A stretch of 4,426 nucleotides of DNA from a virus (Duplodnaviria > Heunggongvirae > Uroviricota > Caudoviricetes), in IMG/VR virus record IMGVR_UViG_3300039368_000117. One strand, 5' to 3'. Of the stretch, positions 1,777-4,426 are shown one piece after another; the first letter of the stretch is position 1; every line of letters starts with the position of its first letter. The notes below the pieces were generated by a model. It did no database searches and was not told the DNA's origin. It saw only the letters and a list, made by a program, of their open reading frames with translations. A program made the position numbers and the translations under genes.

Positions 1777-2033
1777 TTGAACTTCCCCGGACAAAATCGA
1801 CTCATCTAAAGATTTACAGCTCTTTTTATTATCAATATGTTAAAAGTAAAATAAACAGATGTTCAATAACACGAATACAAAAACGTGCTGAAATTCAATG
1901 AATCCATTTCTGTGTCATCAATTAATAGTGATAAACATCCGGCTTCTTCCACCATCGCACCGGACAGGCGACTATGAGGGGACAACGCCGCGCTCCGTTA
2001 ACGCGGTAAACCCCGGTGTGTGTCGTTTTTGAT

Positions 2034-2098
2034 TATCCCCGCACACTCGCGCAGAGGAGTCTCCCTGTCGGGCTGCGGTCTCTGTTAATGCGGGGATA
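2034..2098. repeat. 10-bp perfect inverted repeat (TATCCCCGCA … TGCGGGGATA) flanking a 45-bp GC-rich spacer just downstream of Rz/Rz1
   Basis: tatccccgca at 2034..2043 is the reverse complement of tgcggggata at 2089..2098. The spacer holds further short palindromes (cgcag/ctgcg, ggag/ctcc). Overlaps no credible ORF. Confidence 0.4.
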
Positions 2099-2126
2099 CG
2101 GCGACAATACCGCGCATCAGCAAAAC

Positions 2127-2585
2127 CTATTTCAGGCACTGAGTGCGGATATAGTCCTGCGCCCCTTCCAGCTGCTTCTGCATCAGCATCAACCGTTCTC
2201 TGAGAGTGAAATAATCCCGTTCAGCGGTGTCTGCCAGTTGGGGGCCGGTTGCATTATCCACGCGGGCGGTGCCGGTGGCTTCACGCACGGGACCTGGACA
2301 GGTGGCGTTGATACGCAGGCGCTTACGACCAGCGGCAACGTCAGCGCGAAGAGTTTCATTTTCAGCTCTCGCATCGGCTAATTCCCTCGAGTATTTTGCA
2401 TCGAGCGCAGCAACATCGCGCTGGCGCACCTGCATATCAGTAATGGTTGCGTTCGCCAGCTTCAGTTCACTGGCTTTGTTATCGCGCTGCGCTTTGTAGG
2501 TAATCGCGTTATCACGGTAATGGTCTGTTGCCATCCACAGCGCTCCACAGGCCACCAGCAGAATAACGATAAACGCGGAAAGCAT
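2127..2585 (-). CDS. Rz-family i-spanin (inner-membrane spanin subunit)
   Basis: Translation …[70 protein letters not shown]…[16 protein letters not shown]…MQKQLEG… is highly similar to lambda Rz from memory, with an N-terminal TM segment. The ORF track starts at GTG 2600; I prefer the ATG at 2583..2585 (152 aa). Confidence 0.9.
2189..2374 (-). CDS. Rz1-family o-spanin (outer-membrane lipoprotein), embedded in the +1 frame of Rz
   Basis: [20 protein letters not shown]… has a lipobox-like LVVSAC followed by the proline-rich [27 protein letters not shown], paralleling lambda Rz1 (…[27 protein letters not shown]…). Entirely inside Rz, the classic arrangement. GAGGGA lies upstream of the ATG. 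Confidence 0.8.
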
Positions 2586-2596
2586 TCGGTTTATGT

Positions 2597-2728
2597 TCAC
2601 CCCAGCAGCCCCGACGAAGACAACATCATCCAGGCCATGGAAAGAAAAAGAGCAACCAGCATTAGTGAAAATGAAATGCCGACAATTACACAGAGGATCT
2701 TCGCCAGCGTTATGAGTTTGTCTGACAT
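2597..2728 (-). CDS. Hypothetical 43-aa single-pass membrane protein inserted between endolysin and Rz
   Basis: ATG (plus 2726..2728) preceded by AGGGAGGA with 7-nt spacing; translation [43 protein letters not shown]; the stop TGA (2597..2599) overlaps the Rz GTG candidate start by 2 nt. The ORF-track version (2597..2818) has a Cys/Gly-rich N-terminal extension that looks non-coding. Confidence 0.4.
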
Positions 2729-2742
2729 GCTTAATCCTCCCT

Positions 2743-2925
2743 TCACGATTTCAACGCAATGACCAGTTTTGCCAGCCCATACAGCATCGGGGACACAGCA
2801 ACACCGACCGCCACCCACTTAATGGCAAAAGCCAGTGCTCTGCTGATGTCATCAGTTACAGGCGCTTTCAGTTCAAGGCCGTTTTTCATAGTCAACCTCA
2901 ACAGAATTCGTTTATACTTTTCCAT
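2743..2925 (-). CDS. Hypothetical 60-aa protein with basic N-terminus and C-terminal hydrophobic segment
   Basis: ATG (plus 2923..2925) preceded by AAGGGAGAAC; translation [60 protein letters not shown]; ends 14 bp upstream of the 43-aa ORF on the same strand. The ORF track extends it to a GTG at 2958. Confidence 0.4.
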
Positions 2926-2958
2926 GTTCTCCCTTGCCTTATCCAAGGTCAGAAACAC

Positions 2959-2992
2959 AAAACCCCGCTTGCAGCCAACAAACGGGGTTTTT
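2959..2992. terminator. Terminator-like hairpin between endolysin stop and the small ORFs, with T-rich flanks on both strands
   Basis: aaaaccccg (2959..2967) pairs with cggggtttt (2983..2991); an inner 3-bp stem (ttg/caa) leaves a 7-nt loop. Followed on plus by ttttt-acttttatt and on minus by ttttgtgttt. The GC core is only 5 bp, so strength is uncertain. Confidence 0.35.
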
Positions 2993-3081
2993 ACTTTTAT
3001 TCACTTAGGTTTTGCCAGTTCTCAGGATTTCGTGTTATCCGTCCGCATTAGCCAACGTCATTTTTCAACAAAATATTCTGC

Positions 3082-3615
3082 TTATTTGTCAATTCCCCAG
3101 CACGCCAGCGCGCTCTCCTGGTCACGCCGTGAGACCTGTCCATAGCAGTTATTTGAACGAATACGGCAGTCTCTGCCACCGTCCTTAATCCACCAGCGAA
3201 TCGCCTCACATGCTCCCCTGCGATCGCCAGCATTAATTCGTCTGTAAAACGTCGACGGGAAACACTTACCGGGACCAATGTTGTACGGACAGAATGACGC
3301 GATCCCCGCTTTCTGGGGTTCGGTCAATGGCACTTTGATGTTTTTCTCCACCCATGCCAGCGCCTTATCACGCTCAATGGCGTTAACCCGGTCGCATTTT
3401 TCCTTCGACAACTTCATGCCCGGAACGACAGGTTTGCCATCCACCAGGATGGCACCGCGGCAGATGGTCCAGATACCCGCGCCATCACGGTATGCCGTGG
3501 TGTGGTTACCTTCCTTTTCATCCAGAAACTGGTCGAGAATGTCAGGCGCAGGCGCACCAGCGGCAATCAGCGCCAGAACGGCAGCCGACAGGCCGTATCT
3601 GATTTTTGCGTTCAT
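3082..3615 (-). CDS. Phage endolysin, T4-lysozyme-like (GH24) with N-terminal SAR (signal-anchor-release) domain
   Basis: 177-aa ORF with an Ala/Gly-rich weakly hydrophobic N-terminus (YGLSAAVLALIAAGAPA) followed by the E…D…T catalytic motif region EKEGNHTTAYRDGAGIWTICRGA. Resembles phage 21 R21 and Qin/DLP12-type prophage lysozymes from memory. Sits between the pinholin and Rz in a lysis cassette. No obvious Shine-Dalgarno upstream of the ATG. Confidence 0.9.
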   Translation of the reverse strand: MNAKIRYGLSAAVLALIAAGAPAPDILDQFLDEKEGNHTTAYRDGAGIWTICRGAILVDGKPVVPGMKLSKEKCDRVNAIERDKALAWVEKNIKVPLTEPQKAGIASFCPYNIGPGKCFPSTFYRRINAGDRRGACEAIRWWIKDGGRDCRIRSNNCYGQVSRRDQESALACWGIDK

Positions 3616-3720
3616 GGATATTTATCAGGATTTATCGGTTTCTGAGCCCTGGATATGTTTATCAGTTCCAGCCTGTTGCCTCAGGCTGCTAACAGGTCAA
3701 TACAATCATGAGGATTATTT

Positions 3721-3993
3721 ATGGACAATAACACCATTTCTCTACAGGAGTTGCTCGACAGCATTTCCAGGCTTCGGGAAGACGTGAATACCCTTACCGT
3801 CGCCTTCTCATATCTGGCATTCTCAATTCCAAGGGAACAGATGCAATCAACGCTGGCATCAATCCAGTTTGAATCATGCAATCCCAAATGGTCTCAGGAA
3901 CAACAAGACTCTTTCAGGCGGCTTGCTGTATTACTGGATGAAAAATATGCTGGTAAAATTACCATTTCGGCGGACTCTTCAGAGAACCCGTAA
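3721..3993 (+). CDS. Hypothetical 90-aa protein on the strand opposite the lysis genes (candidate moron)
   Basis: ATG at 3721 preceded by GAGGA (3710..3714) with 6-nt spacing; TAA at 3991..3993; a hairpin plus T-run follows about 43 bp downstream. No family recognised. Overlaps the 3' end of the 114-aa minus-strand ORF by 35 bp. Confidence 0.4.
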   Translation: MDNNTISLQELLDSISRLREDVNTLTVAFSYLAFSIPREQMQSTLASIQFESCNPKWSQEQQDSFRRLAVLLDEKYAGKITISADSSENP

Positions 3994-4303
3994 TTATTCC
4001 CGGTAGTTTTCCTCTGTAGGTTATCAACACATCCTGCGCCTCTAAAATTACGGGGCGCTTTTCCGGCGACTGCTCATCCCCTTCACATAACCCGGCAGCA
4101 ACATCCAGGAAGACCTGTCTGATGCTCCTTCTGGCTGCTGCCTCATAAAACTCCAGCGCGGCACCTTCAACACGGTCCAGCGAGATGTCCAGGTCAAAAA
4201 TTTCACCGTCAAAGCGTTTTTTGTCCCGTAACGCTAAAGTTACCGTAACTTTATTCTCAAAATTGCGGATCCCTTTCACAATCAGTTTATAGTTTTGAGT
4301 CAT
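3959..4303 (-). CDS. Hypothetical 114-aa protein between holin and endolysin (possibly YdfR/DUF1327-like)
   Basis: ATG (plus 4301..4303) lies 4 nt after the holin stop and is preceded by GGGGAGAG; single Met at the N-terminus; soluble-looking sequence MTQNYKLIVKGIRNFENKVTVTLALRDKKRFDGEIFDLDISLDRVEGAALEFYEAAARRSIRQVF…. The YdfR assignment is from gene-order memory of the K-12 Qin prophage (essQ-ydfR-rrrQ), not from sequence recall. Confidence 0.6.
   Translation of the reverse strand: MTQNYKLIVKGIRNFENKVTVTLALRDKKRFDGEIFDLDISLDRVEGAALEFYEAAARRSIRQVFLDVAAGLCEGDEQSPEKRPVILEAQDVLITYRGKLPGIITGSLKSPPKW
4036..4062 (+). terminator. Candidate intrinsic terminator downstream of the 90-aa plus-strand ORF
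   Basis: gcgcctc (4036..4042) pairs with gggggcgc-side cggggcgc (4052..4058, one G-U pair), 9-nt loop, followed by tttt (4059..4062). Lies antisense within the 114-aa ORF. Confidence 0.3.
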
Positions 4304-4307
4304 TGAA

Positions 4308-4426
4308 TTACTCTCCCCGTGCAGCCTTACGACGGTCCTCTCTGATTTTGAAATACAGGTTAGTCAGATATGTCAGCAGCCCAAACAGCAGACTCCCCAG
4401 CACGCCTATTGCCGCCCACTGAGACG
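4308..4426 (-). CDS. Class II pinholin (phage 21 S21 family), C-terminal part; N-terminus lies beyond the window
   Basis: Hand translation of the minus strand from the window edge gives [38 protein letters not shown] then stop (plus 4308..4310 = tta), almost identical to the C-terminus of S21 as I recall it (…[38 protein letters not shown]). Not in the ORF track because it is truncated by the window edge. Confidence 0.85.

Follow-up and report, generated by a model that had tools for sequence, protein, structure and literature searches.

The two small genes described here, ORF1 and ORF2 (open reading frames, ORFs, of 60 and 43 amino acids, aa), lie between the endolysin gene R and the spanin genes Rz/Rz1 on a stretch of 4,426 nucleotides of viral DNA (IMG/VR record IMGVR_UViG_3300039368_000117, Caudoviricetes), the whole of which we refer to as the window. 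This 4.4-kb window is the late region of an Escherichia coli lambdoid prophage resembling the Shiga toxin (Stx) phages. Comparison of alleles indicates that ORF1 and ORF2 are genuine coding genes under purifying selection, and our tentative preference is that they encode accessory inner-membrane proteins that would act at lysis, modulating its timing or efficiency and possibly also setting the translation of Rz/Rz1. The expression signals and synteny of the pair lean towards a late, lysis-linked role of this kind, while distant relatives of ORF1 that lie outside lysis cassettes lean in the opposite direction.

The minus strand is the coding strand of every cassette gene, and along it the window runs from the end of a class II holin gene through YdfR/DUF1327, R, ORF1, ORF2, Rz/Rz1 and a spacer with small genes to the terminase gene Nu1 and the start of the large-subunit gene (Table 1). 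Between R and Rz there are 481 nt if Rz begins with the GTG at 2600, or 496 nt if it begins with the ATG at 2585; the former agrees with the interval of about 480 bp given by a sequence-only reading of the window, which was made by a model without database searches. That reading had described two ORFs on the same strand, 14 nt apart, each led by a Shine-Dalgarno (SD) sequence, the first encoding a product with a C-terminal hydrophobic anchor and the second a single-pass protein, and had suggested that they might regulate lysis timing or the spanins, exclude superinfecting phages or be toxic micro-proteins. The coordinates, the spacing and both SD sequences stand, and the best 19-residue hydropathy windows (1.88 at residues 38-56 of ORF1 and 2.89 at residues 11-29 of ORF2), together with an AlphaFold2 model of ORF1, agree with the membrane assignments. 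The spacer between ORF2 and Rz is shorter still, at 0-11 nt.

The expectation that both ORFs are conserved as coding sequences across related prophages is borne out by their patterns of substitution. The loci that we compared were retrieved through similarity to ORF1 or ORF2, and all of those looked up hold a lysis cassette except two (L254 and L255); they provide 26 ORF1 alleles, from Escherichia and Salmonella, and 18 to 19 distinct ORF2 alleles, the latter drawn from 165 loci and encoding 13 proteins of 65-100% identity. In the called frames, the ratio of non-synonymous to synonymous polymorphism (pN/pS) is 0.24 for ORF1 and 0.35 for ORF2, and at the same loci it is 0.13 for R and 0.41 for Rz; for ORF1 it falls to 0.19 over codons 13-60, and to 0.15 when only the E. 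coli-type alleles are taken. Variable sites at first, second and third codon positions number 21, 15 and 44 in ORF1, and 16, 11 and 24 in ORF2, while the other sense frames return ratios from 0.86 to 2.8 (0.86 and 1.83 in the case of ORF2). Purifying selection spans the full length of both ORFs, including the variable C-terminal half of ORF2 (0.37), and the length of ORF2 is exactly 132 nt in 18 of 19 alleles. Starts and stops are conserved as well.

It is scarcely credible, then, that these are chance ORFs in a spacer that an annotation pipeline has called. The window does contain 53 mechanical ORFs of at least 25 aa, and a frame antisense to ORF2 is likewise open in all 18 ORF2 alleles considered, with a pN/pS of 0.42, but the strong and correctly spaced SD sequences, the confinement of the lowest ratios to the called frames, a length maintained across 65-100% protein identity, a hydrophobicity that survives substitution, and the same neighbours in Escherichia, Salmonella, Citrobacter and Cronobacter all argue otherwise. 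The antisense frame itself (80 aa, plus strand, 2520-2762, opposite ORF2 and the start of Rz) was considered as a further gene and set aside; it has no SD and shares its wobble positions with ORF2, which would mimic selection, and it is therefore a probable artefact. A 33-aa ORF in an alternative frame within ORF1 (2751-2852) was also rejected, since it behaves as neutral (pN/pS 0.96, or 0.93 over the core codons that contain it).

The position of the two genes is a mosaic slot. In the Qin prophage of E. coli K-12, rrrQ and rzpQ overlap and nothing lies between them, and relatives of the window carry other cargo in the same place; both observations uphold the description of ORF1-ORF2 as an insert relative to the arrangement in lambda and phage 21, one that is present in many prophages, absent from Qin and variable in content among relatives. 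Among 241 loci, the R-to-Rz interval ranges from approximately 300 to 1435 nt and ORF1-ORF2 is its commonest content. Other intervals hold ORF1 alone, the antirepressor gene (ant) with either ORF2 or ORF1, ORF1 with a shorter paralogue ending RWW, ORF2 followed by a copy of the ORF1 C-terminus, or ORF1-ORF2 followed by a DNA methyltransferase gene. At 80 loci chosen on ORF2, DNA identity is 98-100% over ORF1/ORF2, compared with 85-100% (mostly 92-94%) over R and mostly 91-96% over Rz, and synonymous diversity (pS) is 0.09 among E. coli ORF1 alleles as against 0.30 for R. The G+C content of the insert is 0.43-0.48, compared with 0.55 in R and Rz, a T-rich tendency being general for genes of hydrophobic proteins. 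The mosaic slot, the recombination joint within ORF2 that is described below, the higher identity of the insert and its lower G+C therefore point to a module that moves between cassettes.

The module is widespread in E. coli. The 362-nt ORF1-ORF2 stretch is covered over at least 80% of its length in 1037 of 5426 complete genomes (19%) and is partly present in 1742. Full-length homologues of ORF2, with 65-100% identity, occur in 276 phage records, mostly of Stx1- and Stx2-converting phages, where the order is R, ant, the ORF2 homologue and Rz, as exemplified by ORF50 of BP-4795. ORF1 is rarer among isolated phages (14 records), and is also found in Salmonella. In many Stx-phage records the ORF2 homologue before Rz is unannotated, for example in NC_010237 (Min27), NC_011356 (YYZ-2008) and NC_028685 (Ss-VASD).

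Across these cassettes the small genes follow four unrelated endolysin types. In the window they come after a signal-anchor-release (SAR) lysozyme of glycoside hydrolase (GH) family 24 in a cassette with a class II holin; in Salmonella, after a lysozyme with a holin_2_3 holin, or after a GH19 endolysin with a lambda-S-type holin of family holin_3_1. A GH108 endolysin, with holin_8 and holin_3_7, precedes both ORF1 and ORF2 in Citrobacter and ORF2 only in Cronobacter, and in phiSTEC1575-Stx2k the small gene follows an M15 endolysin. Cassettes with ant have it upstream of the small gene, and the small gene still adjoins Rz. Because of this synteny, we consider the constant partner of the small genes to be the distal, envelope-directed end of the cassette (Rz or a lipoprotein) and not the SAR endolysin; the sequence-only reading was correct in placing the pair between R and Rz, but the consistent neighbour is the downstream gene and not the SAR endolysin that it had named.

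Several individual loci merit description in this context. In GH108 and M15 cassettes (L264 and L262, both at 2640-2822, and L006, at 2649-2831), in which no Rz was called, a 60-aa lipoprotein gene occupies the would-be position of Rz/Rz1, and its start overlaps the stop of the small transmembrane gene, which is either ORF2 or an RWW-type ORF1 paralogue. The predicted lipoprotein is conserved; it carries a signal peptide and a VGC lipobox (LLVGC in L264 and L006, LPVGC in L262), and its mature part, of about 30 aa, contains three cysteines. On a GC-rich phage contig (L258, 3001-3903), the major capsid gene is followed by four or five genes for small membrane peptides, among them a member of the ORF1 family, a paralogue and peptides ending RWW; one of these peptides resembles a 31-aa ORF (MISQLPNWKFLLVW...) in the R-Rz interval of vB_EcoS-569R3. 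A metagenomic locus (L256, 43-222, P0240) joins the N-terminal half of a class II holin, in register at a conserved tryptophan, to the ORF1 helix, and is followed by ORF2 and a second copy of the ORF1 C-terminus. The holin and ORF1 DNA alignments overlap by approximately 47 nt, and this chimera may be a real deletion or recombinant or else an assembly artefact.

ORF2 is predicted to be essentially one long transmembrane helix, and D3, K4, S19 and F20 are invariant among its alleles. In every arrangement its last codons, GGGGTGA, hold the ribosome-binding site of the following gene or overlap the start of that gene, and its 3' end (CTGG/CTGGGGTGA) is a constant junction to four different downstream genes: two N-terminal types of Rz, the methyltransferase, and the C-terminal copy of ORF1. 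In the window its TGA overlaps the GTG of Rz (GTGA, 2597-2600), as the sequence-only reading had proposed, but the overlap holds for that start alone, as the ATG chosen by RefSeq lies 11 nt past the ORF2 stop; we infer from comparison with MNRVLCVV-type Rz alleles that the GTG is to be favoured. The N-terminal half of ORF2 travels with the upstream gene, be it ORF1 or ant, and the C-terminal half with the N-terminal type of Rz, a pattern that identifies ORF2, as judged from its alleles, as a recombination joint in itself. We do not regard the correlation between the C-terminal half of ORF2 and the N-terminal type of Rz as a case of co-evolution, since physical linkage explains it equally well.

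Two variations on this junction may be noted. In L107-L110, a 311-aa gene resembling DNA methyltransferases stands between ORF2 and Rz (interval positions 493-1428), and its ATG is 8 nt past the GGGGTGA junction. In the L188-type lineage (8 loci with 3 distinct sequences and an R-Rz interval of 487 nt), the second half of ORF2 is frameshifted, although the product is still 43 aa long; a locus can thus persist, at least for a while, once this C-terminal half is gone.

ORF1 is modelled as a basic N-terminal helix that a loop joins to a transmembrane helix at the C-terminus, with a predicted N-in orientation; the AlphaFold2 model places helices at residues 2-15 and 22-59, with a per-residue confidence (pLDDT) of about 90 over the last 30 residues, and W37, G41, S45, Y49 and G50 are invariant among alleles. 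Two products, of 60 and 48 aa, are probably initiated from this gene. The internal start at M13 has its own GAGG, derived from an AGG arginine codon, and this motif is kept in 24 of 26 alleles; AGG is a rare codon in E. coli. Codons 2-12 have 18% variable nucleotide sites, compared with 35% in the core, and show near-zero synonymous change. Distant relatives of ORF1 preserve the basic N-terminal extension as protein (Y-K/R-K/R-x-F/L-R), and M13 is the called start in many database entries, several of them from Salmonella. At the first start, a local stem-loop predicted by RNA folding (2923-2957) would partly sequester the SD and ATG.

A longer, 71-aa form of ORF1 beginning with a GTG at 2958 was rejected. 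This GTG falls in the T-run of the hairpin described below and lacks an SD, and the extended frame is broken in Salmonella alleles by a 26-nt insertion; we therefore take 2925 to be the outermost credible start. The upper boundary of 2958 that the sequence-only reading had set for the insert belongs to this 71-aa form and does not survive, and the module also includes the hairpin, which lies beyond the span first given. The insertion itself is located between a conserved SD and the ORF1 start in Salmonella and GER2 alleles (about 25 nt upstream of the gene start at 3001 in L248, L251 and L252, and at around 2470-2500 in L007). In Salmonella it creates a mini-ORF of eight codons (MCREVCSL) with a TGA that overlaps the ORF1 GTG start, and which would be a leader peptide coupled to ORF1; the GER2 copy deviates at a few bases.

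The terminator-like hairpin upstream of ORF1 (ΔG approximately -21 kcal/mol) reads as a terminator on both strands. An equivalent hairpin occurs 27-57 nt upstream of every ORF1-family gene examined, regardless of whether the preceding gene encodes a SAR lysozyme, a GH19 endolysin, an antirepressor, a tail fibre or a major capsid protein. In distant members the sequence of the stems differs and the pairing stays, with compensatory changes in 7 of 14 pairs in an alignment of eight sequences. Promoters and terminators were called as consensus matches. Across 2000-4426, the consensus scan found no sigma-70-like site on the minus strand, weak or non-sigma-70 promoters being beyond its reach, and because no promoter was detected on the sense strand, ORF1 and ORF2 are probably expressed late. 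The plus strand has a promoter-like site inside ORF1 that recurs at the same position in six of seven divergent family members; it is a weak match (9/12, with an 18-nt spacer) and overlaps protein-conserved codons (Y-K-R). Together with the hairpin it would define a putative antisense RNA of about 75 nt across the SD and start codon of ORF1, which is predicted to fold into a 5' stem and a terminator (z=-3.1). Rfam returned only a sub-threshold, terminator-like match and no family at threshold, and the Pas small RNAs map upstream of the holin, not at ORF1/ORF2.

In the model that we tentatively prefer, ORF1 and ORF2 would constitute a mobile accessory module that docks between the endolysin and the genes for outer-membrane disruption in lambdoid prophages of E. 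coli and its relatives. The pair would be transcribed only when Q-antiterminated late transcription passes the hairpin, and would be made together with holin, endolysin and spanin. Both proteins would then act at the inner membrane in the lysis phase, as non-essential modulators of its timing or efficiency, through antiholin- or holin-like helix-helix contact, whether with the pinholin or with a membrane-spanning segment of Rz or of the SAR endolysin; in addition, or instead, the level of Rz/Rz1 translation could be set through coupling. In favour of the model we count the purifying selection, the lack of a detected coding-strand promoter, the short spacers up to Rz, the recurrence of the genes in lysis cassettes of unrelated make-up, the prevalence and membrane character of the pair, and the precedents in P1, P2 and mycobacteriophages that are discussed below.

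A number of observations weigh against this model. Distant relatives of ORF1 are found outside lysis cassettes, after tail-fibre genes (L254, L255, L259) or a major capsid gene (L258). Mycobacteriophages are reported to have lysis regulators with a single transmembrane helix whose genes sometimes lie outside the cassette, and for this reason the outlying relatives would be compatible with a lytic role. Profile and sequence searches found no significant similarity of either protein to holin, antiholin, spanin or releasin families. The ORF1 helix matches the second transmembrane helix of the class II holin in its own cassette at 7 of 16 residues (E=0.004 in a single comparison), but this is a level expected between transmembrane helices, and we see it as no more than a weak hint in favour of the model; homology between the two helices was considered and is unsupported by profile searches. 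Since lambda, phage 21 and Qin do without ORF1 and ORF2, whether in lysis or in gene arrangement, any role must be accessory, and some lineages have a frameshifted ORF2 or a truncated ORF1 beside apparently intact R and Rz. A negative consensus scan is not proof that promoters are absent, intact ORFs will be over-represented because the loci were retrieved by their similarity to ORF1 or ORF2, and the literature search found no paper on the two genes.

The features of the module that imply mobility would equally suit moron-type cargo, that is, genes that benefit the lysogen or exclude other phages, for instance by blocking DNA entry, and which occupy a permissive junction in the late operon. 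We think this unlikely, although it deserves serious weight. The patchy, mosaic distribution, with a slot that alternatively holds ant, a methyltransferase or extra small genes, is in keeping with such cargo, and the presence/absence pattern and differing base composition by which morons are recognised are both seen here (absence from Qin, variability among relatives and lower G+C than the flanks). The excess of ORF1/ORF2 identity over that of R and Rz, with the low pS of ORF1, fits recent horizontal spread, the distant ORF1 relatives after tail-fibre and capsid genes are at classic moron sites, and HK97 gp15, a 62-aa inner-membrane exclusion protein encoded by a moron, offers a precedent. Morons, however, have a promoter in front and a terminator behind (PMC3594210), whereas the consensus scan detected no coding-strand promoter here and the sole terminator-like hairpin is upstream, 27-57 nt before the start. 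The tight coupling to the next late gene also counts against a moron, and inspection shows no resemblance to gp15/YebO, the helix of gp15 being N-terminal, nor is there any match in PADLOC. A distinctly unlikely alternative is that the ORFs are linkers of value chiefly as nucleic acid and through their translation, which feed ribosomes to Rz or the lipoprotein gene and offer modules a conserved site at which to recombine, while the peptides themselves have little activity. The constant junction of the ORF2 3' end with four downstream genes, the role of ORF2 as a recombination joint and the persistence of fusion and frameshift variants in the databases would all be explained in this way, but selection on the amino acids throughout both genes, down to the C-terminal half of ORF2, together with the hydrophobicity and the several invariant residues of each protein, would not. 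Moreover, an adapter ORF seems unnecessary, because R of the lambda type couples straight to Rz.

A type I toxin-antitoxin-like arrangement, in which ORF1 would be a hydrophobic toxin and its translation would be blocked by the cis-antisense RNA of about 75 nt that ends at the hairpin, we judge to be very improbable. ORF1 is a small single-transmembrane peptide, as such toxins are; the plus-strand promoter-like site is positionally conserved in six of seven divergent members, the hairpin is always present and has a good T-run on that strand, the putative RNA folds with the stability given above, and synonymous change in ORF1 codons 2-12 is unusually limited. As a promoter, however, the site is a weak match and lies in codons conserved for the protein, the internal SD for M13 accounts equally well for the synonymous constraint, the Rfam result does not go beyond a sub-threshold likeness to terminators, and ORF1 sits within the late operon and is coupled to it, unlike the type I loci generally described. 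A bolder and improbable extension of our preferred model is that the hairpin-led, probably dual-start ORF1 with ORF2 represents a novel class of lysis-clock regulator, with genes of its own, in phages with pinholins and SAR endolysins. The long and short forms of the tail-anchored ORF1 helix would then oppose one another as S107 and S105 do, but would work in trans, their target being the holin, SAR-endolysin release or the transmembrane segment of Rz; in a variant of this idea, the hairpin, antisense promoter and ORF1 would together be a new family of type I toxin-antitoxin systems in prophage late operons.

Among known systems, ORF1 and ORF2 are best filed with the small accessory membrane proteins that the late or lysis regions of phages encode, although to them the definitions of moron and of type I system apply only in part. 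Neither belongs to a holin family by Pfam hmmscan (to E<=1), no holin is among the 20 hits of the ORF1 profile, and neither has the charged C-terminal tail of holins, as ORF1 ends VIALKS and ORF2 SSSGLLG. A role as spanins was rejected, there being too few residues beyond the helices and no lipobox, and the genuine Rz/Rz1 follow. Membership of the releasins (DUF2730) finds no Pfam match and is contradicted by a different architecture; for HK97 gp15/YebO the architecture is opposite, no resemblance was seen by inspection alone, and PADLOC gave no match. P2 LysA, as reported by Ziermann and colleagues in 1994, is a membrane protein that the phage can do without, with a gene that separates endolysin K from the Rz/Rz1-like lysB/lysC and a possible effect on lysis timing; it is reportedly much larger than ORF1 or ORF2, with several transmembrane segments, and homology is not expected. 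The dual-start holins of lambda (S107/S105) and phage 21 (S71/S68) are resembled in the two probable in-frame starts of ORF1, each led by an SD, by the additional N-terminal positive charge of its longer form (net +3), by the predicted stem-loop over the first SD and ATG, and by the weak likeness to a holin helix. In those systems, however, the holin gene itself gives rise to both forms, with the extra charge beside the first transmembrane helix, whereas the helix of ORF1 is C-terminal, some 20 residues from the extension, and there is no Pfam holin match. Hok, Ldr, Ibs and ZorO are type I toxins, and ORF1 is like them in size, hydrophobicity, narrow taxonomic range, occurrence in multiple prophage copies and a possible cis-antisense RNA; it differs in having no sequence similarity to them and in being embedded in, and coupled to, a late operon.

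The nearest precedents in function comprise, besides LysA and the dual-start holins, the lydD and lydE genes of P1, the Mu releasin and the HK97 gp15 moron. In P1, lydD and lydE encode small membrane proteins and come straight after lyz, a SAR endolysin gene of that late operon, and the starts and stops overlap or lie close together (PMC9025707). LydD, however, is an 84-aa pinholin that has two transmembrane helices and a C-terminus rich in basic residues (PMC9025707), whereas ORF1 and ORF2 each have a single helix and lack a charged tail at the C-terminus, no sequence similarity was detected, and a class II holin is already provided upstream. The releasin of phage Mu, gp25, is comparable as a membrane-tethered non-holin protein encoded no more than a few genes from a SAR endolysin, the release of which it controls (PMC9239132). 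It is 99 aa long, N-out/C-in, with an acidic cytoplasmic domain of 73 aa (PMC9239132), while ORF1 has a basic N-terminus and is predicted to be N-in; GH19, GH108 and M15 endolysins also occur alongside ORF1 and ORF2, and neither ORF matches DUF2730. HK97 gp15 is similar in being about 60 aa long, with a single inner-membrane helix, and an add-on to a lambdoid late operon (PMC3594210), and the distant ORF1 relatives occupy comparable sites between modules; its N-terminal helix, YebO-like sequence, own promoter and downstream terminator (PMC3594210) set it apart from ORF1, which has its hairpin upstream.

The existence of both genes is already recorded in the databases, where they are listed as hypothetical proteins. 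The sequence-only reading had recognised neither sequence, but both are present in RefSeq and PHROG; E. coli strain 118UI contains an identical stretch with the same RefSeq annotation, ORF1 and ORF2 being given as 'hypothetical protein'. Searches with proteins and profile models succeed only in part: full-length matches are to the uncharacterised PHROG families phrog_1115 (ORF1, E=1.4e-42) and phrog_4906 (ORF2, E=2.1e-23), and neither peptide has a match in Pfam, NCBIfam, PADLOC or PDB sequences. An exhaustive profile search with ORF1 among 1.84 billion proteins recovered only 20 relatives, all small single-transmembrane proteins, and a scan of genome representatives with the ORF1 alignment gave zero confirmed loci. 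A full-text literature search found no publication that mentions the accessions, the PHROG families or the peptide sequences, nor are ORF1 and ORF2 mentioned in the searched portions of a ribosome-profiling paper on small genes of Sakai and a review of small phage proteins.

The N-terminus of R, MNAKIRYGLSAAVLALIAAGAPAP, is SAR-like, having K4 and R6 followed by a weakly hydrophobic stretch rich in alanine and glycine, and E35, D44 and T50 would correspond in position to the catalytic triad of phage 21 R. Stx-phage endolysins of this kind are predicted to be SAR endolysins (PMC8136144). The lipobox of Rz1, VVSAC, can be read directly off the sequence. Between ydfR and R, a 90-aa ORF on the plus strand shares 35 nt with the 3' end of ydfR; it has a full-length match to phrog_2411 (E=1e-58) and is hypothetical in RefSeq and 'DUF1823 containing' in PhiR12 phages, and a gene on the opposite strand within a late operon is unusual. 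Downstream of Rz, in the AT-rich Rz-Nu1 spacer (G+C 0.41), there is a small hydrophobic ORF of 46 aa (WP_000347013.1, beginning MDFMLTVSGVVILSIAYTADKYG), which has no Pfam or PHROG match.

Table 1. Genes and candidate expression signals of the lysis region, in window coordinates.
Feature	Position	Strand	Details
YdfR/DUF1327 gene	3959-4303	minus	
90-aa ORF	3721-3993	plus	
R, SAR-type lysozyme	3082-3615	minus	177 aa; Pfam Phage_lysozyme PF00959, E=3e-24; upstream neighbour of the insert
Terminator-like hairpin	2959-2991	minus	Terminator scan; A-run 5', T-run 3'; 33 nt upstream of ORF1
ORF1 long-form SD	2927-2935	minus	AAGGGAGAA
ORF1 ('A family')	2743-2925	minus	ATG; 60 aa; phrog_1115; WP_021566721.1
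Promoter-like site	2889-2918	plus	TAGTCA-18-TATACT; within ORF1 codons 3-13; consensus match alone
ORF1 internal start	2887-2899	minus	GAGG 2896-2899; ATG of M13 2887-2889; 48-aa form
ORF2 SD	2735-2742	minus	AGGGAGGA; directly after the ORF1 stop codon
ORF2 ('B family')	2597-2728	minus	ATG; 43 aa; phrog_4906; WP_001280932.1
Rz (i-spanin)	2127-2600	minus	Start GTG 2600 or ATG 2585; Pfam PF03245, E=5e-50
Rz1 (o-spanin lipoprotein)	2189-2374	minus	Embedded in Rz; Pfam PF06085, E=1e-20
46-aa ORF	1636-1776	minus	

In Stx phages, the release of toxin depends on phage lysis, and an accessory protein that shifted lysis would affect both toxin output and phage fitness. Should the reading of the pair as regulators of the lysis clock prove true, ORF2, which stands before Rz in 276 mostly Stx-phage records, would help to time the release of toxin and phage. 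The hairpin, the internal start, the ribosome-binding site for Rz within ORF2 and the position of the genes after four endolysin types all offer concrete hypotheses for a lysis laboratory. Were the two genes to be neutral cargo, they would still represent a recombination joint in lambdoid late operons, and their recognition would correct the annotation of many phage records.

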